From an uncultured Candidatus Saccharibacteria bacterium (GTDB lineage: Bacteria; Patescibacteriota; Minisyncoccia; Phycocordibacterales; UBA12088), in NCBI GenBank assembly GCA_964562615.1, contig CAZLUD010000002.1, positions 17,907 through 81,906 on the forward strand: 64,000 nucleotides of DNA, given 5' to 3'. The notes under the pieces were generated by a model. It was given only the letters and a program-made list of their open reading frames with translations. It ran no database searches and was not told the origin of the DNA. Shown here piece after piece: positions 2,361 to 14,691 of the stretch (position 1 is its first letter; each line of letters opens with the position of its first letter). Made by a program: the position numbers and the translations under genes.

Positions 2361-3824
2361 ATGGCATCTATAGACGACATTCGCGCTGAGCGCATCAAAA
2401 AGCTAGACCTACTTCAAGCGGCGGGTATGGACGCATATCCTGCTACAACCAATCGTACTCACTCCATCGCTACAATACATGATGCATTTGATAACTTTTC
2501 ACATTCAAGTGATGTGGTTGTTCTTGCCGGAAGAGTGCGATCATTTAGACAGCACGGGGGAGTTATTTTTGCAGATATCTTTGATGGCACGGCAACCATC
2601 CAAGTAATTTTTAAAAAGGACACCATAGGAGATGTACTGTTTACGCTTCTTGTTGATGCGGTAGATGCTAGTGATTTTATTGAAGTTACCGGCACCATTG
2701 CGCTTTCTAAAACTAATCAAGAGTCAATTGTTGCAACATCATGGCGAATGCTCGCAAAGAGCATTCGCCCAGTACCAGATGAGTGGTTTGGTATTAAAGA
2801 TGAGGATGAACGATACCGAAAGCGCTATCTTGATATGTTGCTGAGTGATGAGACACGAGCAATAGTCTACAAGCGCGCACTATTTTGGAAAACAATCAGA
2901 AACTTTTTAGAGGAGCGCGGGTATATCGCGGTTGAAACTCCTATACTTGAAAACACCACCGGTGGCGCCGATGCACGACCATTTGTCACTCACCACAACG
3001 CACTTGATATGGATGTGTACCTGCGTATCTCTGCAGGTGAGTTGTGGCAAAAGAAGCTCATGGTTGCCGGTATTCCTAAGGTGTACGAAATAGGAAGAAT
3101 CTTTAGAAACGAAGGCATGTCTGCGGAGCACCTTCAAGACTACACTCAGATGGAGTGCTATGAGGCGTATAGCGACTACCACAAGGGTATGGAAATGATT
3201 AAAGAGATGTATCAAAGAATCGCAAGGGATGTATTTGGAACAAGTACATTTACAATCCACGGACATACAGTACATCTTGATGGCGAATGGACTACGTATA
3301 ATTTTTGTGACGAGCTTATCAAGCAATATGGCATTGATCCACTTGCTACCACCACTGAGGCGGTAATAGATGCGCTCACCGCACACCACATCCCATTTGA
3401 TAAAAAAGAAATAAACCTTGAGCGAGGTGTCGACCTGTTGTGGAAAAAAATTAGAAAGGGTATCACCGGACCAGGATTTTTGATTGGGATACCAGTATAC
3501 CTAGAGCCGCTAGCAAAAAAGTCTGCGCAAGATGCGCGTGTGGTTGAACGGTTTCAAATTGTGCTTGCCGGTAGCGAAGTAGGCAAGGGATTTTCAGAAC
3601 TTAATAATCCACTAGATCAAGCAGAGCGATTTACGCAGCAACAAGCGCTTCGTGATAAGGGTGATGCCGAAGCACAGATGGCAGATTGGGAATATGTCGA
3701 AGCGATGGAGTACGGCATGCCGCCAACGTTTGGTTTTGGGGTAAGCGAACGCCTCTTTGCCTTTTTGATGGATAAACCTGTGCGCGAGACACAACTCTTT
3801 CCGCTGATGCGTCCACGCGAATAA
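2361..3824 (+). CDS. lysS: Lysyl-tRNA synthetase (class II)
   Basis: 487 aa. N-terminal OB-fold anticodon-binding domain and class II catalytic motifs (FRNEG, GxGxGxERL-like). Confidence 0.92.
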   Translation: MASIDDIRAERIKKLDLLQAAGMDAYPATTNRTHSIATIHDAFDNFSHSSDVVVLAGRVRSFRQHGGVIFADIFDGTATIQVIFKKDTIGDVLFTLLVDAVDASDFIEVTGTIALSKTNQESIVATSWRMLAKSIRPVPDEWFGIKDEDERYRKRYLDMLLSDETRAIVYKRALFWKTIRNFLEERGYIAVETPILENTTGGADARPFVTHHNALDMDVYLRISAGELWQKKLMVAGIPKVYEIGRIFRNEGMSAEHLQDYTQMECYEAYSDYHKGMEMIKEMYQRIARDVFGTSTFTIHGHTVHLDGEWTTYNFCDELIKQYGIDPLATTTEAVIDALTAHHIPFDKKEINLERGVDLLWKKIRKGITGPGFLIGIPVYLEPLAKKSAQDARVVERFQIVLAGSEVGKGFSELNNPLDQAERFTQQQALRDKGDAEAQMADWEYVEAMEYGMPPTFGFGVSERLFAFLMDKPVRETQLFPLMRPRE

Positions 3825-3956
3825 TACTCCCGAGACACTTTTGACAACACACCCCGAACATTGCGGGGTGTTTTGTTGTGGATAACACGTACCCATAAGT
3901 GGGGCAAAGTGTTGTACTATACATGAGCAGTGGGATAAAGTGGTATACCGAGAAAC

Positions 3957-4391
3957 ATGCTGATAGGAGAATACATTCACACACTCGACCCAAAAAAGCG
4001 TTTATCGCTCCCTGCTAAGTTTCGAAAGGAGCTTGGAAAAGGGGTGGTGGTAACACGAGGGCTCGATCACTGCTTGTGGGTGTATTCAACTAAAGAGTGG
4101 CATGTAATCGCAACACGACTCGCTGCACTGCCAATAGGGCAGGCGGATACAAGAGGGTTTGCACGTTTTATGTTTTCGGGTGCAACCGAGGTAGACATAG
4201 ACAGTGCAGGGAGAATGCTCATTCCAGACTTTCTCAAAACATTTGCAGGCCTTGAGAACAAAGTGGTACTCGCTGGTGCGCAAACACGAATTGAGATATG
4301 GAACGAAGCAGCATGGGAAGCGTACAAAATGCGTATCGAATCACAGGCAGATGTAATGGCTGAAAAACTTGGAGAGATAGGCATTGTATGA
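3957..4391 (+). CDS. mraZ: Transcriptional regulator MraZ
   Basis: 144 aa with duplicated MraZ DxxxR motifs. It is the first gene of the dcw cluster. Confidence 0.9.
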   Translation: MLIGEYIHTLDPKKRLSLPAKFRKELGKGVVVTRGLDHCLWVYSTKEWHVIATRLAALPIGQADTRGFARFMFSGATEVDIDSAGRMLIPDFLKTFAGLENKVVLAGAQTRIEIWNEAAWEAYKMRIESQADVMAEKLGEIGIV

Positions 4392-5284
4392 CCACCCATA
4401 TCCCCGTTCTTCGAAATGAAGCAATAGAAGCACTCCTCATCAACGACCATGATGTGGTGGTAGACGCTACCCTTGGTGGAGCCGGGTATGCCAAAGACAT
4501 TGTTGGCAAGCTCTCAGCAGACGGGGTATTTGTCGGCATAGATGCTGATGCAAAGGCAATTGCCCGCGCACAGCTGGCGCTTAAAGGCGCCAAGCCAACC
4601 ACGTATCTTGTAAACACCAATTTTAGACATATCGGTGTCGTACTTGATGAGCTTCATATTGCTACGGTTAATAAAGTTGTCTTTGACCTTGGTCTATCCT
4701 CGTATCAGCTTGAAGAAGGCGAGAGAGGGTTCACCTTTCAAAAAGACGAACCACTTATTATGACGTTTGCTACCGAGACGCTTCCTCATGAGAGAACTGC
4801 TCGAGACATAGTAAATGAGGACAGTGTTGAAGCGCTTACTACCATGCTCTTTACCTACGGAGATGAAAAGTACGCACGTCGAATTGCAACAGCAATTGTA
4901 AGTGAGCGAGCGATTGCACCAATAGAAACTACTGGTGCGCTCGTAGCCATCATAGAGAAGGCAGTCCCGGTGGTATACAAAAAGCAACGGACACATCCTG
5001 CCACACGAACGTTTCAAGCACTTAGGATTGCAGTCAATGAAGAGTACGACGCGCTTACAGAAACACTCACCACCGCAATAAGCAGACTAAGCAGTAAAGG
5101 AAGGATAGCAGTAGTGAGCTTTCATAGCGGAGAGGACAGAATTGTAAAAACGATTTTTCGGGAGGCGGCACAAAACGGTAGTGGGGTGCGTGTAACTAAA
5201 AAGCCAATTGTGCCGCGCCCCGAGGAAGTCGAACACAATCCTCGTTCACGAAGCGCAAAATTACGGGTATTTGAAGCACTATGA
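4388..5284 (+). CDS. rsmH: 16S rRNA m4C1402 methyltransferase RsmH
   Basis: Begins HIPVL and contains the DATLGGAGY SAM-binding motif. It overlaps mraZ by 4 nt. Confidence 0.92.
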   Translation: MTTHIPVLRNEAIEALLINDHDVVVDATLGGAGYAKDIVGKLSADGVFVGIDADAKAIARAQLALKGAKPTTYLVNTNFRHIGVVLDELHIATVNKVVFDLGLSSYQLEEGERGFTFQKDEPLIMTFATETLPHERTARDIVNEDSVEALTTMLFTYGDEKYARRIATAIVSERAIAPIETTGALVAIIEKAVPVVYKKQRTHPATRTFQALRIAVNEEYDALTETLTTAISRLSSKGRIAVVSFHSGEDRIVKTIFREAAQNGSGVRVTKKPIVPRPEEVEHNPRSRSAKLRVFEAL

Positions 5285-9019: not shown

Positions 9020-9091
9020 GGCCCTATCGTCTAACGGTTAGGACGGAGCCTTCTCAAGGCTTAAATCGGGGTTCGATTCCCCGTAGGGTCA
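9020..9091 (+). tRNA. tRNA-Glu (anticodon CUC), no encoded CCA
   Basis: Manual cloverleaf: acceptor GGCCCTA/TAGGGTC, D-arm GTCT/GGAC, anticodon stem GAGCC/GGCTT with loop TTCTCAA, T-arm CGGGG-TTCGATT-CCCCG. Confidence 0.8.
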
Positions 9092-9093
9092 CA

Positions 9094-9225
9094 AATCGGC
9101 CGACCGAATACGCGAATGCGTTTCGGTCGTTGCCGTTTGTAGGCACTACGGGGAATCGAACGACGGAGGCGGTATACAAGAACCGAAGCGAAGCGTAGGT
9201 TGCTTGTCGCCGAGTCGCGACCAGC
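9094..9225. repeat. 132-bp direct repeat unit A (copy 1). It contains a hairpin and an inverted 16-nt tRNA T-arm fragment
   Basis: Identical to 14325-14456. It contains ctacggggaatcgaac, the reverse complement of the tRNA T-arm. Confidence 0.9.
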
Positions 9226-9294
9226 GTGCTTAGCCAGAATGGCTTAGCAAAAGCGGGTCGATTCCCCGTAGGGTCACAAATCGAGACGAAGTCT

Positions 9295-9539
9295 CGTTTT
9301 GTGATGAAATACTAGCCTTTGCTCGAACCCATTTCGAGAAAAGACCATAACTACAACGCGTCGAGCGCGTGGTGGCTTTGTACTTCTGCGTACGCATTGG
9401 GGTGTGGCGCGCCTCGCCACTCGCTAATCGCTCGCCCCCAACCAATGAAATATCCTTACTTTTTGATTTTTCGGTGGAGGGGTCTGGGGAGGAGCCGACA
9501 AAAAATTGAAAGGATATTTCTTTGGTTTGGGGTCGCCGC
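9295..9539. repeat. Left arm (about 245 bp) of the terminal inverted repeat flanking the island cargo
   Basis: It is the reverse complement of 14082-14326. The outer tip cgttttgtga approximates the reverse complement of the core. Confidence 0.9.
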
Positions 9540-9574
9540 CATGAGTCTAGAAATAAGATTTTGTCCACGATCAA

Positions 9575-9598
9575 ACTATTATACTTTAATATAATAGT
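9575..9598 (+). promoter_or_regulatory. C-box-like palindromic operator upstream of the controller gene
   Basis: Perfect 9-bp inverted repeat ACTATTATA-n6-TATAATAGT, ending in AGTC like C.PvuII-type C-boxes. Tandem TATAAT boxes lie at 9603 and 9621. Confidence 0.55.
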
Positions 9599-9633
9599 CG
9601 TGTATAATGTAAGAGTTGGGTATAATTGTGGAG

Positions 9634-9837
9634 ATGAATGATTCCGCAAAGCTCGGCATGAATTTGAAAAAAATTCGCGAAGCGAAAAATATGTCTCAAG
9701 GTGACGTTATGCGCGTTATGGGTTGCAGTCGTAGTTATGTTAGCAACATCGAAAATGGAAAGACAAACCCCACCCTTGAGACAATTTCAAAACTAGCGAA
9801 GGTACTCGATGTAAGCACCATTGAGCTATTAAAATAG
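9634..9837 (+). CDS. XRE-family HTH regulator, candidate restriction-modification controller (C protein), probably leaderless
   Basis: HTH motif MSQGDVMRVMGCSRSYVSNIENGK. The ATG lies about 8 nt after the TATAAT at 9621-9626. The track used a TTG at 9616. Confidence 0.7.
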   Translation: MNDSAKLGMNLKKIREAKNMSQGDVMRVMGCSRSYVSNIENGKTNPTLETISKLAKVLDVSTIELLK

Positions 9838-9841
9838 AATT

Positions 9842-10798
9842 ATGACTACGCAACAAACAATCGCAAAACTCGCATATGAGTTAAAAATCAATAAAATCTA
9901 CGCGCGTCATGTTTTTCATAATGCAGACAAAACGAGATTATTTGAAGATGCGGCTCGAATTGTTAATGAGAAGCCAAAACCTTTCGTGAAATGGGTTGGA
10001 GGAAAAAGACAGTTGCTCCGCCAATTTCGTGATATGGGGTTATATCCACCTGATGATTTTGATCCTGTTACCAATACATACTTTGAGCCGTTTGTTGGCG
10101 GTGGAGCTGTCTTTTTCGATCTTCTGCCTCAGAAAGCAGAACTTTCTGATCTCAATACAGAACTTGTGACAACATACAACGTCATTAAAAATGACGTTGA
10201 TGCACTAATTAATTCACTCAAAAAACACAAGTACGAAAAAGAGTACTATCTAGAATTGCGTGCAAAAGATCCCAAAGAACTATCAGATATAAATGTTGCT
10301 TCTCGGTTCATTTTTCTTAATCGCACTTGCTTCAATGGCATGTATAGGGTCAATAGCAAAGGTGAATTCAATGTTCCGTTTGGGAAATATACAAACCCTA
10401 TAATTTGTGACGGAGATAATTTGTTTAAAGTATCGAAATCACTAAAAAAAGTAACTATCAAAAATCAAGACTATAAAAAAGTTTTGGATAAAGCAAAAAA
10501 AGGAGATTTTGTATATTTCGATCCACCTTATTATCCAGTAAGTAAAACTGCTTCCTTCACTTCATATACAGCAGATGCTTTTTTAGAAAAAGAACAGACA
10601 GAGTTGAGAGATACATTCGTAGAATTACATAAACGTGGTTGTTTTGTCATGCTTTCTAACTCCGATACTTCAGTTATCAACGAACTATACTCGAATATTA
10701 AGGATATCAAAGTATCAAAAGTTGCTGCAAGCCGTGCCATAAACTCAAATGCTTCAAAGCGAGGAAAGATAAGTGAAGTTTTAGTAACTAACTATTAA
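9842..10798 (+). CDS. Dam-family (D12 class, alpha) N6-adenine DNA methyltransferase with a 55-aa N-terminal extension
   Basis: Motifs KWVGGKRQLL, FEPFVGGGAVFF (motif I) and FDPPY (motif IV). Confidence 0.85.
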   Translation: MTTQQTIAKLAYELKINKIYARHVFHNADKTRLFEDAARIVNEKPKPFVKWVGGKRQLLRQFRDMGLYPPDDFDPVTNTYFEPFVGGGAVFFDLLPQKAELSDLNTELVTTYNVIKNDVDALINSLKKHKYEKEYYLELRAKDPKELSDINVASRFIFLNRTCFNGMYRVNSKGEFNVPFGKYTNPIICDGDNLFKVSKSLKKVTIKNQDYKKVLDKAKKGDFVYFDPPYYPVSKTASFTSYTADAFLEKEQTELRDTFVELHKRGCFVMLSNSDTSVINELYSNIKDIKVSKVAASRAINSNASKRGKISEVLVTNY

Positions 10799-10801
10799 AT
10801 T

Positions 10802-11329
10802 ATGATTAAGGGTGGCGTTGGAGGAGGAAATACAAAAACAGGATTACACTTTGAAGGTCGAATTAATATTGTCGATCTACTAAATAGCCAGCCTGGCTAC
10901 AAAGTGACGAAAGATGTTGTCTACTTTGAGGGTTCAGAAGTCGCAATCTGCCTTGCAAAACATAAATTGTATAAATGGCTTGAAACTCAAAACATAGACT
11001 ACAAAAAGTACATATCAAAAAAGTTGCTACCCGATGAGGCGTTGTATGTAATTGTAGACAACACTTTGTATGTCATTGAAATGAAGTTTCAGGAGACTCC
11101 TGGGTCAGTTGATGAAAAATTACAAACGTGTGATTTTAAGCGTAAGCAATACTCAAAATTGATGGCTCCACTAAACATTGAAGTTGAGTACATGTATGTA
11201 CTAAGTGAGTGGTTTCGTAAAGATGAATACAAAGACGTACTTGACTATATTATTTCAGTTGGATGTCAGTACTATTTTGAATATATACCATTACAGAAAC
11301 TCGGCTTACCTGTACCGAAAATACAATAA
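10802..11329 (+). CDS. Small PD-(D/E)xK nuclease, candidate type II restriction endonuclease
   Basis: 175 aa with LLPDE...VDNTLYVIEMK, giving PD-x14-ExK. It sits between two MTase genes. Confidence 0.5.
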   Translation: MIKGGVGGGNTKTGLHFEGRINIVDLLNSQPGYKVTKDVVYFEGSEVAICLAKHKLYKWLETQNIDYKKYISKKLLPDEALYVIVDNTLYVIEMKFQETPGSVDEKLQTCDFKRKQYSKLMAPLNIEVEYMYVLSEWFRKDEYKDVLDYIISVGCQYYFEYIPLQKLGLPVPKIQ

Positions 11330-11335
11330 TTATTC

Positions 11336-12088
11336 ATGGCTAAGGAAATGAAACTACACCCTGAAGAATTCGACCTTGAATGCACAACGGTGTGGGCATT
11401 TCCACGGCGTGGTAACTGGGCAACCCACAAATCAGACTGGCGTGGTAACTGGGCACCAGAAGTCGCCCGCAATCTAATCCTTCGATACTCTAACGAGGGT
11501 GACATTCTGCTAGATCCAATGATTGGCGGCGGTACTACTGCGATTGAAGCAAAGATACTCAATAGAAATATCATATGTTCAGACGTAAATGATATTGCAC
11601 TAGAACGAACAATGGAAAGTCTAAAATTTCCAGTTGAAAACAAATCGTGGCAAAAGATTGTTAAGAGGGATGCACGTGACCTCAGCAAGGCTGAAAATGA
11701 AAGTATTGATTTTATTCTCACTCACCCACCGTATGCTGATATTATCAAATATAGTGAGGGAGAAATTGATGAAGATCTTTCAAATATCCACGCGATAGAC
11801 GAGTTTGCGGACGAAATGGAAAAAGTCGCTAGTGAATTGTATAGAGTCCTTAAGCCTGGTAAATTTTGCGCAATTTTGATCGGTGATACTCGACGTCAAA
11901 AAATGTATCAACCTCTCGCATATCGAGTTATGGATCGCTTTTTGAATGTAGGTTTCGATCTCAAAGAAGACATCATAAAAAGACAATACAACTGTAAGGC
12001 AACGGGTTTTTGGGTAAATAAATCAAAAGAAAATAATTTCTTACTAATAATGCACGAACATTTGTTTGTATTTCAAAAAGCAAATTAA
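11336..12088 (+). CDS. Amino (N6A/N4C) DNA methyltransferase with motif order X-I then IV
   Basis: TVWAFPRRGNWATH...GDILLDPMIGGGTTAIEA (motif X/I) followed by ILTHPPYADI (motif IV). Confidence 0.75.
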   Translation: MAKEMKLHPEEFDLECTTVWAFPRRGNWATHKSDWRGNWAPEVARNLILRYSNEGDILLDPMIGGGTTAIEAKILNRNIICSDVNDIALERTMESLKFPVENKSWQKIVKRDARDLSKAENESIDFILTHPPYADIIKYSEGEIDEDLSNIHAIDEFADEMEKVASELYRVLKPGKFCAILIGDTRRQKMYQPLAYRVMDRFLNVGFDLKEDIIKRQYNCKATGFWVNKSKENNFLLIMHEHLFVFQKAN

Positions 12089-13874
12089 CGATATGTCTTA
12101 CAAAATTTTAAAAATTTCCATAAACAACTATCGGTCTATCAAAAGAATCACATTGACCACACCCGAATTCGGAAATCCTACAATTATATGTGGCGCAAAC
12201 AACGTAGGAAAAACAAATTTTTTACGAGCAATAGATTTATTTTTTAATGAAGTAAATTTCAAAGCATCAAACGACATTCCCTATGAAATAGTCGAAGCAA
12301 CGCGAGGAGCTGGCTATAAGACCACCATAAGTATTGATTTCATCGATACTGCTACAAAGGAAAAGGTTGTTATAAAGAAAGTATTCCGAGAACAATCTGG
12401 GGAAAATGTAGTTGAGAGAACTGGATATAAAAAGCCGTATCGAAGTAACCGTAATAATATTTATGATACTGAGATTAGAAAATTTCTTGATAATTTCCGT
12501 TTTCTTTTCGTCGAAGCTAGTAATGTAGACATCCCTGCACTTGTTGCACAAATCACAAAAAATAATGTACTTTCTGGACTCGACAAATTACGCAAGAAAC
12601 AAACTAAACCGTTGGATATTTTGAAAAAATTTATTTCGGAATCCGAAAAATCACTACAAAATATCGAGACGAATATCACAAAAAATTTTCAAGACTTTGC
12701 ACATGGGATTGGCACTTACACTGAAGGCTTAGATGCAAAAGACTGGCAGATTAAATTCATTTTTCCTGAGTATGAATTCTTAAGAGAAGCTGTTGGTAAT
12801 ATGGTTAACTTAGTGATGCAGGACAGCAACCAAAAAGAGCTCGAAGCTAAAGGTAGTGGTATTCAAAGAATACTCTTACTCTCTCTAATAAAGTATATCT
12901 CTGAGAACACAAAGAAAACTGTAATTTGGGGTATTGATGAACCAGAGGCTTTTCTTCAGCCAGGACTTCAGAAAAAAGTTTTTGCCATAATAAAGGAGAT
13001 GTCACGAAACCTTGAGATATTCATAACGACACACTCACATCACTTTGTGGATATTGGGTACCTAGAGCCAGTGCATCTATTTAATGCTAAATATACTCAA
13101 CAAGCATACTCAAGAAAGAAGAACAAAGAATATCTGAAGATAAGCACTGAAGTAGATAAGGTTACAGGATACAACAAGGTACAAAAAATAAGAGAACATC
13201 TCGGAGTAGCAACAAACGACAGTTGGGAGATTCTGCCCTACAACTTAATTGTTGAAGGCAACGAGGACAAATTATATTTGCTTAAGCTTTTAGAAATTAA
13301 CGGACTCGATCAGCCGAAAATACTTACAGCTGACGGAGCGGATAAAGTTCCCGGATATCTAGTCTTTGTTAATATGTTTTGCCAAGAACAAAAAATAAAA
13401 CCGAAAATACGAACAATATTAGATCATGACGCAAAAGGAAAACAGGTCTCAAGCAGCCTTAAATCAAAGAACTATTCATTTGATCATAAGTTAGAATTTA
13501 TTGAAAGATTCGATGGTAAAAGTAACGCAACTTGGGAATATGACGTTGAAGATTTAATTTATCCTGAAATATTAATTAAATCCGTTAATAAAATACTACA
13601 AAAAAGAAATTATTCGATACTAAAAGTAAAAGAGACCGTCACAAAGAAGAATCAGCCGAGTTATCAGAAAGATTCAATTCTTTCATTCATTACAGCGCAG
13701 GTTAAAGAAGTTAACCAGGATAAAGAAGAGCTTGACTTTGAAAGTCCGTCACTCAAAATATTTCTTTGTACAACCACCTGTTCTCTACTTTCACAGACTA
13801 AGGACATAGCTAACTTGAACAAAAAATATCCTGAAATCCTGAAATATTTAAAACAGATATCTGTAGAATTTTGA
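12066..13874 (+). CDS. OLD-family ATP-dependent nuclease (ABC ATPase fused to TOPRIM); alternative start at 12093
   Basis: Walker A ICGANNVGKTN, signature GSGIQR, Walker B IDEPEAFL, H-loop TTHSHH. The C-terminal TOPRIM is LIVEGNEDK...ADGADK. Confidence 0.8.
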   Translation: MYFKKQINDMSYKILKISINNYRSIKRITLTTPEFGNPTIICGANNVGKTNFLRAIDLFFNEVNFKASNDIPYEIVEATRGAGYKTTISIDFIDTATKEKVVIKKVFREQSGENVVERTGYKKPYRSNRNNIYDTEIRKFLDNFRFLFVEASNVDIPALVAQITKNNVLSGLDKLRKKQTKPLDILKKFISESEKSLQNIETNITKNFQDFAHGIGTYTEGLDAKDWQIKFIFPEYEFLREAVGNMVNLVMQDSNQKELEAKGSGIQRILLLSLIKYISENTKKTVIWGIDEPEAFLQPGLQKKVFAIIKEMSRNLEIFITTHSHHFVDIGYLEPVHLFNAKYTQQAYSRKKNKEYLKISTEVDKVTGYNKVQKIREHLGVATNDSWEILPYNLIVEGNEDKLYLLKLLEINGLDQPKILTADGADKVPGYLVFVNMFCQEQKIKPKIRTILDHDAKGKQVSSSLKSKNYSFDHKLEFIERFDGKSNATWEYDVEDLIYPEILIKSVNKILQKRNYSILKVKETVTKKNQPSYQKDSILSFITAQVKEVNQDKEELDFESPSLKIFLCTTTCSLLSQTKDIANLNKKYPEILKYLKQISVEF

Positions 13875-14081
13875 CAAGCACACACGCAGCAACACCGAGC
13901 AGGCGGCGCGAGCGAATGCGAGCGTGCCTATGCGAGGTGCTTGCGTAGTGTGAGCGGACGCTAGCTTTACCACGCGCGCTGTATACGGGAAGCGCGCCTC
14001 GCTCGACGCGAGGACGGAAAAAAGCGTAGTGGTAGGCTCTCAAGTAGATGGAGACTATAATGGAGCTTTTTGGAGGACGAA

Positions 14082-14326
14082 GCGGCGACCCCAAACCAAA
14101 GAAATATCCTTTCAATTTTTTGTCGGCTCCTCCCCAGACCCCTCCACCGAAAAATCAAAAAGTAAGGATATTTCATTGGTTGGGGGCGAGCGATTAGCGA
14201 GTGGCGAGGCGCGCCACACCCCAATGCGTACGCAGAAGTACAAAGCCACCACGCGCTCGACGCGTTGTAGTTATGGTCTTTTCTCGAAATGGGTTCGAGC
14301 AAAGGCTAGTATTTCATCACAAATCG
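14082..14326. repeat. Right arm (about 245 bp) of the terminal inverted repeat
   Basis: It is the reverse complement of 9295-9539. It ends in the TCACAAATCG core, which abuts repeat unit A. Confidence 0.9.
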
Positions 14327-14456
14327 GCCGACCGAATACGCGAATGCGTTTCGGTCGTTGCCGTTTGTAGGCACTACGGGGAATCGAACGACGGAGGCGG
14401 TATACAAGAACCGAAGCGAAGCGTAGGTTGCTTGTCGCCGAGTCGCGACCTAATTT
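14325..14456. repeat. 132-bp direct repeat unit A (copy 2)
   Basis: Identical to 9094-9225. It is followed by a 52-bp insertion flanked by GCGACC, then the shared 58-bp segment. Confidence 0.9.
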
Positions 14457-14563
14457 TTACGACCAAAGGGAGATAAAAATGGAAGTACTCTTTGTGGTGC
14501 GACCAGCGTGCTTAGCCAGAATGGCTTAGCAAAAGCGGGTCGATTCCCCGTAGGGTCACACGA

Positions 14564-14598
14564 AATCCTGGTACTAATTTTTTATTAGTACCAGGATT
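14564..14598. repeat. Perfect 15-bp palindrome with a T5 loop at the island/chromosome junction
   Basis: aatcctggtactaat-ttttt-attagtaccaggatt, immediately after the last tRNA 3' copy. Confidence 0.8.
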
Positions 14599-14691
14599 GC
14601 GCTTGTGATGCCTGGGAGGCAGAATCGAAAGCCGCAGCAAAGCGAGGCAGGGCAGGAGCCACTTAGGTTTCTGGGAGATATTGCTATTTAT

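Follow-up and report, generated by a model that had tools for sequence, protein, structure and literature searches.

In the MboI restriction-modification (RM) system the genes are ordered methylase, endonuclease, methylase. The locus described here occupies positions 9093–14560 of a 64,000-nucleotide (nt) stretch (the window) of contig CAZLUD010000002.1, from the metagenome-assembled genome (MAG) GCA_964562615.1 of an uncultured Candidatus Saccharibacteria bacterium. It resembles the MboI and DpnII cassettes in having a DpnM-like methylase (M1) and a second amino-methylase (M2) with an endonuclease gene between them. It is unlike them in its putative endonuclease, which does not belong to the DpnII family, comprises 175 rather than approximately 280 amino acids (aa) and has no sequence match in the Protein Data Bank (PDB), and in possessing a permuted M2, a controller (C) protein and a fifth gene encoding an OLD-like protein. 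As a whole, the locus is probably best explained as a GATC-type RM cassette to which the OLD-like protein is coupled as a second-line effector. New features are the endonuclease family, not described before, and an OLD gene embedded in an RM operon; the RM module is otherwise of a known kind.

Accessory nuclease genes within or at the end of an RM operon are exemplified by PrrC, an anticodon nuclease without a TOPRIM domain, and by TgvAB. The corresponding arrangement is seen here and in three related loci (L034, L036 and L041), where an OLD gene is placed between hsdS and hsdR. TgvAB of Vibrio (PMC12409362) is further comparable in that GmrSD genes are found in the slot after M2 in sister cassettes. 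The window locus differs from both in combining a type II host system with an effector of the OLD family.

Single-gene (Class 1) OLD nucleases are treated in the literature as isolated genes away from other defence genes, with triggers that are poorly understood (PMC10568477; PMC13261556), and 107 of 837 old genes were assigned to 'species-specific operons' by Schiltz et al. (PMC6755086). The OLD-like protein of the window resembles the Class 1 proteins P2 Old, Thermus scotoductus OLD (TsOLD; 6P74), VcOLD and Escherichia coli YbjD in combining an ABC ATPase and a TOPRIM domain, with intact motifs, in a single polypeptide. Unlike them, it is encoded by the final cistron of a five-gene RM operon and belongs to a clade found repeatedly in such operons. 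GajA of Gabija (GajA/GajB; Class 2) is also an OLD-family protein of similar fold (Foldseek E-value of 2e-17), but no gene for GajB or a UvrD-like helicase follows OLD in the island. PARIS (AriA/AriB; Class 4) and the BREX backup modules likewise tie an OLD-type ATPase and a TOPRIM nuclease to modification-based defence; here, however, the two are fused rather than split, and the system that they accompany is a type II GATC RM cassette, not BREX or a phage hotspot. That a backup effector may guard restriction is an idea already in the literature (PMC12839542; PMC11464382).

The five-gene cassette

The cassette (Table 1) has a GC content of 0.32–0.41, compared with 0.41–0.50 in the flanks and 0.434 over the whole window, and its five + strand open reading frames (ORFs) are separated by gaps of 3–6 nt. 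Profile matches to the C protein, M1, M2 and the OLD-like protein (Pfam, PADLOC and NCBIfam hidden Markov models, HMMs) lie far above chance level. No integrase or recombinase gene is present in 9093–14560, where all five genes are otherwise assigned and there is no further plausible ORF. In particular, 13874–14560 holds no plausible gene after the OLD stop codon; the ORFs of at least 50 aa in this part lie inside repeats and are taken as spurious. An earlier note on this DNA, made from the sequence alone, had described an AT-rich, recombinase-free island of five genes on one strand, placed at the 3′ side of tRNA-Glu(CUC) and without a GajB gene. The base composition, the ORF map (9634–13874), ARAGORN and Rfam bear out this description, and every gene could be given a function other than that of a recombinase. 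At the end coordinate that it had proposed, 14560, the third direct repeat of the tRNA 3′ end terminates.

M1 matches the MethyltransfD12 family (E-value of 2.8e-61) and the TIGR00571 dam model (293 bits, with a cutoff of 115). Its best PDB match, over the full length, is DpnM of the DpnII system (PDB entry 2dpm, E-value of 2.8e-72), and E. coli Dam is matched at 1e-37; from these similarities M1 is DpnM-like and probably GATC-specific. M2 matches N6_N4_Mtase (E-value of 1.2e-25) in two stretches of permuted order, with motif I at approximately residue 60 and HPPY at approximately residue 139, and aligns end to end with the PADLOC type II methylase model PDLC03376 (296 bits). The earlier assignments as a Dam-class N6-methyladenine (m6A) methylase and a second amino-methylase, and the likeness of two methylases plus one nuclease to DpnII-type GATC cassettes, are thereby sustained. 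Both methylases belong to DNA-methyltransferase families, with their catalytic motifs intact, and stand beside a protein with a predicted nuclease fold and a catalytic motif; the identity of the cassette as an RM system is well supported.

The first gene encodes an XRE/HTH_3 protein (Pfam E-value of 2e-19; PADLOC Control_protein HMMs, 2e-12), as expected from its earlier description as a C protein. C proteins delay the expression of the nuclease after entry into a new host. The C-box-like palindrome previously noted upstream corresponds to a 9-bp inverted repeat, a candidate for the operator. Together with the promoter stretch it is nearly identical in two sister cassettes (L068 and L069) that are otherwise approximately 82% identical to that of the window. 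A simple sigma-70 scan left the C-gene promoter unflagged, and the promoter call derives from reading of the sequence and from conservation. A leaderless C-gene transcript is plausible, because the second of two TATAAT boxes ends 7 nt before the ATG.

A putative restriction endonuclease family

The 175-aa protein has no match in NCBIfam, PADLOC or PHROGs, and a PDB sequence search returned chance-level hits only. In Pfam it has no hit to the DpnII family (PF04556) and only a weak one to PDDEXK_11 (0.0013), unlike the related loci, in which DpnII-family genes are readily detected. Its family comprises 7,067 proteins at E ≤ 0.001 in a 90%-clustered database (833 clusters at 50% identity); the source-named members are all labelled 'hypothetical protein' and come from Patescibacteria lineages. 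Among 33 aligned members the motif P77-D78...E93-x-K95 is invariant, and the block G101-S-V-D-E-K-L-Q-T-C-D-F-K113 is likewise common to all. The AlphaFold model is confident (pLDDT of 83 and pTM of 0.79), and Foldseek returned weak hits, nearly all of them PD-(D/E)XK nucleases; the predicted fold is that of a restriction nuclease without a close solved relative. The structure prediction that had been proposed as a check accordingly agrees with the reading as a PD-x14-ExK nuclease; the epithet 'unusually small' is too strong, as a length of 175 aa, although small, is nothing exceptional among type II enzymes.

Of 80 metagenome loci fetched for this family, 78 are those in which ORF calling recovered the gene, and a methylase gene lies directly upstream in 70 of these. 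This methylase is either DpnM-like, as M1 (often followed by an M2-like gene), or a beta-class (DpnA/CcrM-like) enzyme of approximately 273 aa, which elsewhere directly precedes a DpnII-family or MutH-family endonuclease. Because the same methylase frames hold either kind of nuclease, the 175-aa protein is interchangeable with GATC enzymes within them. The family almost certainly constitutes a new family of type II restriction endonucleases, and the window protein would accordingly be expected to have endonuclease activity. Five of the cassettes (L131, L135, L139, L141 and L153) encode, in this order, a Dam-like methylase, a DpnII-family endonuclease, the 175-aa protein and a beta-class methylase; beside the DpnII-family enzyme, the 175-aa protein may be a second isoschizomer or have a distinct role. 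The family is of interest for defence and DNA uptake in ultra-small episymbionts and as a possible source of compact GATC-type enzymes.

Among 4-bp palindromes of the host sequence, GATC is the second most depleted when the island is left aside (observed/expected ratio of 0.59), and is not depleted inside the cassette (0.93). The methylase family, the interchange with DpnII and MutH enzymes in the same frames and the depletion in the host together point to GATC as the probable specificity of M1, M2 and the 175-aa enzyme.

The OLD-like protein

The N-terminal ATPase of the OLD-like protein matches AAA_15 (E-value of 2.8e-25). In 23 aligned homologues, 38–73% identical to it, the ABC motifs are invariant (Walker A G43..K49-T50, signature S264-G265-x-Q267, Walker B D291-E292 and H-loop H323), as are the acidic residues of the TOPRIM domain (E397, within E397-G398, D401, D453xD455 and E495-D496); the Pfam TOPRIM model PF20469 is matched in some of the homologues only. 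The predicted structure (pLDDT of 81) aligns over its full length with TsOLD (PDB entry 6p74, Foldseek E-value of 1e-17), GajA and the retron Eco8 effector, and TsOLD is also the best PDB match by sequence, at approximately 17% identity. By motifs and fold, the protein is the complete ABC-ATPase/TOPRIM nuclease of the OLD family that it had been taken for.

Two start codons have been called. Logan places the start at TTG 12066 (602 aa, with a 23-nt overlap with M2), and NCBI and JGI place it at ATG 12093 (593 aa), 4 nt after the M2 stop codon; the closest homologues have 593 aa. The overlap with the M2 stop codon that was reported earlier thus stands for the TTG start and not for the ATG start. 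Either start, with its overlap or its 4-nt gap, makes the gene a tightly packed member of the operon.

The island encodes neither a helicase nor a reverse transcriptase, nor is there a separate TOPRIM partner. The NCBIfam Eco8 effector model scores 35 bits on the OLD-like protein (cutoff of 250), and with respect to the retron class (Class 3) there is neither a reverse transcriptase gene in the island nor an Rfam retron hit. The PADLOC AriA HMM is the best hit of the N terminus (3.8e-27) and covers residues 13–142 only; a Pfam scan of the cassette proteins gave no DUF4435 or AriB-type match. By analogy with characterized relatives, the substrate may be DNA or tRNA.

Linkage of OLD to RM genes in other genomes

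A scan for OLD homologues with one genome per species, in which ORFs were labelled by BLAST and neighbours checked with Pfam, yielded 51 loci, 41 of them with a near-complete homologue. Sixteen of these 41 species-level loci are RM-linked, nine or ten of them to GATC-type systems and two more to a D12 methylase only. In 11 of the 41 loci, representing 10 species, the OLD gene has a D12/Dam-class methylase beside it or nearby. The search for methylase–OLD pairs suggested in the earlier note has therefore shown that the OLD gene is repeatedly linked to methylases and to RM operons.

The closest homologue (73% identical) is in a Parcubacteria MAG, in the order M-MutH-OLD with an N6/N4 methylase (L017). 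Further GATC-type arrangements are M-DpnII-OLD in another member of the Parcubacteria (L020), M-OLD-Dam-DpnII in a Methanosarcinales archaeon (L027), Dam-M-DpnII-OLD in the Alphaproteobacteria (L038) and Dam-M-Mrr-DpnII-OLD in the Bacillales (L049). The frame of the window recurs with a different middle gene in Veillonella (L050 and L051), as Dam, a DUF6996/6997/7226 protein, M2 and OLD, and a member of the Paceibacterota (L029) has OLD...Dam-216aa-M2. In a member of the Gastranaerophilaceae (L040), a 453-aa MutH-domain protein and a C5 methylase adjoin OLD, as in the Sau3AI arrangement; Cohnella (L019) has OLD followed by a BglII-like gene and a D12 methylase. In Deinococcus (L035), an MmeI-like enzyme precedes a D12 methylase–OLD pair, and in a member of the Bacillota (L053) the D12 methylase is convergent to OLD. 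Type I operons of the form hsdM-hsdS-OLD-hsdR are found in MAGs of the Gammaproteobacteria (L034), Chitinophagaceae (L036) and Gallionella (L041), and the OLD gene of a Clostridiales MAG (L048) adjoins a type I system. The position between hsdS and hsdR is that of PrrC in the E. coli prr locus.

RM genes are rare among 95 neighbours of the other 28 loci, and RM linkage is absent from the most distant homologues (25–29% identical; Neisseria, Moraxella and Kingella). Few homologues occur in viral contigs (three loci), and a homology search for methylases in them was negative. The identities of OLD and of M1 correlate weakly over seven loci (Spearman coefficient of approximately 0.6, calculated by hand), a value not used as evidence. 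The literature searched contains no account of an OLD gene inside a GATC-type or type I RM operon; OLD-ABC modules in RM-like operons may, however, already be covered by Krishnan et al. 2020 (NAR 48:10045).

The middle gene of the Dam-X-M2 frame was itself recorded in two of the lineages above. It encodes a 434-aa protein with DUF6996, DUF6997 and DUF7226 in Veillonella (L050/L051, 4937–6241) and a 216-aa protein without a Pfam match in L029 (10425–11075); both are candidates for further families of GATC endonucleases.

The variable slot after M2

In the sister cassettes, the position occupied by OLD in the window is variable. L069 (83% DNA identity) has in this slot a different, very distantly related ABC-ATPase/TOPRIM gene, L068 (82%) a set of three genes (2679–4664), whose products are a 364-aa protein with no Pfam match, a 115-aa DUF4325 protein and a protein of 196 aa, and L072 (approximately 82%) other small genes. 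More distant cassettes contain GmrSD-type enzymes (L074, L083/L084, L090 and L150), an AAA_15 ATPase (L089), an AAA_13 ATPase (L079) or a Peptidase_M78 protein (L001). In this respect the slot is comparable to the site within type I operons at which genes such as TgvAB are embedded (PMC12409362). Because the slot is variable, and an OLD-type ATPase is present in only approximately two to three of the 78 cassettes with a 175-aa gene, the RM module does not need OLD. With its long inverted repeat, its att copies and an exchangeable cargo slot at the 3′ end, the cassette illustrates how defence genes are shuffled in genomes with few mobile-element genes.

A separate family of 623–713 aa, with 37% mutual identity and no Pfam match, is encoded beside the 175-aa gene in L005 (8532–10403) and L094 (5217–7358), in L005 between the endonuclease and M2; it may represent a defence gene of an undescribed kind. 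The 623-aa protein of L005 was considered as a diverged OLD protein and rejected, as it has no similarity to OLD and belongs to no Pfam family.

Proposed mechanism and alternatives

In the proposed mechanism, the five genes would be transcribed as one operon from a C-protein-controlled, probably leaderless promoter, OLD being co-transcribed with M2. The type II RM module would be organized as in MboI and DpnII, with M1 and M2 methylating host DNA, most likely at GATC, the 175-aa PD-(D/E)XK enzyme cutting unmethylated sites of invading DNA, and the C protein delaying nuclease expression in a newly entered host. OLD would act as a second-line effector that is genetically coupled to the RM module. 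Its trigger would be the products or the failure of restriction, such as DNA ends, aberrant or replicating phage DNA or anti-restriction factors, and the activated protein would cleave nucleic acid (DNA or tRNA), resulting in irreversible restriction or aborted infection. The OLD family offers several precedents: P2 OLD is an abortive tRNase that is freed from an inactive tetramer by aberrant DNA structures (10.64898/2026.07.10.737580; PMC12445682), VcOLD nicks DNA (PMC12392090), PARIS is set off by anti-restriction proteins, and BREX loci repeatedly contain OLD-ABC/TOPRIM modules as backup effectors (PMC12839542). On these analogies, the odds lean slightly towards some functional coupling of OLD and RM. 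The context offered by the RM-embedded clade is testable, both for what OLD adds to restriction and for whether restriction products or anti-restriction are sensed.

Several observations weigh against this mechanism. Defence genes are commonly co-located without functional coupling, and there is no RM neighbour at approximately 60% of the OLD homologue loci. In close relatives the slot after M2 varies, so that OLD is one cargo among several, and in some of them it holds nothing; OLD-type ATPases are, as stated above, present in few of the cassettes. A DpnII-family enzyme and the 175-aa protein are both present in five cassettes, and the latter could have a role other than that of sole endonuclease. 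The GATC specificity is a prediction. Finally, the orientation of the cassette relative to its flanks derives from one MAG assembly, and independent unitigs break at the repeats.

Pure co-location of OLD and RM is a serious, if minority, possibility. OLD would then be an autonomous defence gene of Class 1 type in a cargo slot, independent of the RM module, its adjacency reflecting the modularity of the island or co-mobilization; this we consider possible but rather unlikely. It would accord with the unrelated defence-type genes that fill the slot (GmrSD, AAA_13, Peptidase_M78, and the 364-aa protein with DUF4325), with the many homologues situated among housekeeping genes (L026, L039, L054, L057 and L061) and with the ability of the Class 1 proteins P2 Old, VcOLD and YbjD to work as single genes (PMC12392090; PMC13261556). 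However, the same clade recurs in tight operons with GATC-type RM systems whose endonucleases come from at least five unrelated families and whose methylation follows two chemistries, in lineages that span the Candidate Phyla Radiation, Firmicutes, Proteobacteria, Cyanobacteria-related bacteria and one archaeon, and homologues also occur inside type I hsd operons. The D12/Dam methylase found near 11 of 41 OLD genes compares with approximately 0.1% for a random gene within two genes, a rough estimate that was not computed, and the slot of L069 is occupied by a non-orthologous OLD-like gene. These observations favour a coupled effector over an independent one.

A more specific form of coupling is conceivable, although we regard it as a tentative proposal with the balance clearly against it: a distinct OLD clade could be the dedicated partner of GATC-specific and, more loosely, type I restriction, reading GATC methylation or 5′-GATC ends or fragments and then eliciting irreversible degradation or an abortive response. 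If true, this would define a fifth, RM-embedded context class of OLD proteins, and would explain why the endonuclease is swapped among at least five unrelated families as the methylase–OLD frame persists.

Very unlikely is the reading of OLD itself as a methylation- or GATC-end-dependent restriction component, forming an RM-like pair with the methylase and leaving the 175-aa protein as an accessory or second nuclease. The D12 methylase that overlaps OLD in L035 or converges on it in L053, with no classical type IIP endonuclease directly beside (L035, as a caveat, also encodes the MmeI-like enzyme), the placement of OLD between the two methylases in L027 and the five cassettes that pair the 175-aa protein with a DpnII-family endonuclease would suit it. 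So would the 5′-GATC overhangs that, to our knowledge, are left by all characterized relatives of the linked endonucleases (DpnII/MboI, Sau3AI and BglII/BstYI). Against it, the 175-aa protein, with its motif intact, is the sole nuclease candidate beside the methylase in most loci; OLD is absent from approximately 97% of the 175-aa cassettes; the methylation chemistry differs (m6A, compared with 5-methylcytosine, m5C, in L040), which argues against one methylation-reading mechanism; and no domain that reads DNA sequence was identified in the OLD protein.

Insertion site and repeats

The segment is probably a defence cassette of approximately 5 kb that a Patescibacteria-type genome acquired horizontally, with the tRNA-Glu 3′ end as the site of insertion. 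A repeat search of the window revealed a 245-nt inverted repeat and duplicated units on which the earlier note had been silent. The order of elements is tRNA, unit A-B, hairpin, left repeat arm, promoter and five genes, spacer, right repeat arm, unit A-ins-B and hairpin (Table 1).

Table 1 Features of the tRNA-Glu island (window coordinates).
Feature	Coordinates	Strand	Description
tRNA-Glu(CUC)	9020-9092	+	ARAGORN; Rfam RF00005, 61.5 bits; 3′ end is the integration site, attL side
att core copy 1	9073-9098	+	TCGATTCCCCGTAGGGTCACAAATCG, tRNA 3′ end plus 6 nt; includes TCACAAATCG at 9089-9098
Unit A-B, first copy	9094-9278	+	185 nt, GC-rich; ends in att core copy 2 (9258-9283)
10-bp direct repeat, left copy	9274-9283	+	TCACAAATCG
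Small hairpin	9282-9296	+	CGAGAC-GAA-GTCTCG then TTTT, terminator-like
Inverted repeat, left arm	9295-9539	+	245 nt
C-box-like palindrome	9575-9598	+	9-bp inverted repeat ACTATTATA-N6-TATAATAGT, upstream of the two TATAAT boxes
TATAAT boxes	9603-9608 and 9621-9626	+	Read from sequence
C protein	9634-9837	+	67 aa from ATG; alternative TTG at 9616 gives 73 aa
M1	9842-10798	+	318 aa, DpnM/Dam-class N6-adenine DNA methyltransferase
175-aa protein	10802-11329	+	PD-(D/E)XK, unannotated family, putative restriction enzyme
M2	11336-12088	+	250 aa, N6/N4 amino-methyltransferase, permuted motif order
OLD-like protein	12093 (ATG, 593 aa) or 12066 (TTG, 602 aa) to 13874	+	ABC-ATPase/TOPRIM
Spacer	13875-14081		207 nt, GC-rich, unique; OLD stop to right repeat arm
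Inverted repeat, right arm	14082-14326	-	Outer end is the right copy of TCACAAATCG (14317-14326)
Unit A-ins-B, second copy	14327-14560	+	48-nt insertion 14451-14498; ends in att core copy 3 (14540-14560), attR side
Hairpin directly after island	14561-14601	+	18-bp stem

The tRNA 3′-end core TCGATTCCCCGTAGGGTCAC is present in direct orientation at 9073, 9258 and 14540, with no chance matches expected, and degenerate inverted att-like copies lie at 9139–9161 and 14367–14389. The duplicated units are identical over 9089–9222 and 14317–14450 and over 9217–9278 and 14499–14560. The 10-bp direct repeat TCACAAATCG bounds a 5,043-bp segment (9284–14326), and the junction of the tRNA and unit A (9089–9103) looks like an unoccupied insertion site matching this repeat. 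Two histories fit this architecture: a site-specific insertion into one of a tandem pair of att-bearing units, or two integrations in tandem and a subsequent deletion. Because none is encoded in the island, a recombinase would have been supplied in trans; decay of an older element is the other conceivable mode. The 245-bp inverted repeat could allow inversion of the cassette.

The arms of the inverted repeat are complementary at 244 of 245 positions, and the repeat folds better than shuffled sequences (RNA fold z = −3.6). Within each arm lies a hairpin with 30-nt arms and a 38-nt loop (9435–9532 and 14089–14186), which may serve as an insulator, a terminator or a recombination site; a counterpart in L068 (2–107) retains the position and not the sequence. 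Rfam searches, with gathering and E-value thresholds, were negative for both the inverted repeat and the A/B units, and no further copies of the inverted repeat are present in the 64-kb window or in viral contigs. A stretch of the spacer (13882–13936) is common to the window and L068, whose cargo differs. Related cassettes also adjoin tRNA genes, tRNA-Glu(UUC) in L001 and tRNA-Ser in L013; a search around these two cassettes was negative for att repeats and for long inverted repeats.

Independent Logan unitigs end at 9067, cover 9510–14111 and resume at 14531; the repeats are therefore real enough to break assemblies. That the repeat architecture (inverted repeat and duplicated A-B units) is partly an artefact of metagenome assembly is improbable. 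The unitigs do break at or near repeat stretches, with two of the four ends lying 30 nt inside a repeat and the one at 9067 explained by no repeat, every other contig with the cassette is at most 4.6 kb long, and the repeats are 100% identical, or nearly so in the inverted repeat. On the other side, both ends of the spanning unitig extend exactly 30 nt into the inverted repeat, as a real repeat would predict; L068, from another sample, has the counterpart inner-repeat hairpin and the right boundary segment; and the att copies and 10-bp repeat form a coherent integration scar.

An independent Logan contig from the same sample (L154) ends at 9067, inside the tRNA just before the T-arm and ahead of every repeat that reaches k-mer length. 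This early end suggests that the 3′ half of the tRNA varies between strains or takes part in an alternative junction. The 48-nt segment 14451–14498, which is confined to the right A-B copy, is bordered by the 6-nt direct repeat GCGACC; either it was inserted into the right copy, or its counterpart was lost from the left one by a microhomology deletion. The hairpin at 14561–14601, which is absent from the terminator-like sites of a terminator scan, would be a terminator and may be that of the tRNA gene itself. Outside 9093–14560, the 4-bp palindrome with the strongest depletion is GGCC (42 observed compared with 113 expected, a ratio of 0.37), which hints at past or present HaeIII-type (GGCC) restriction pressure in the lineage.

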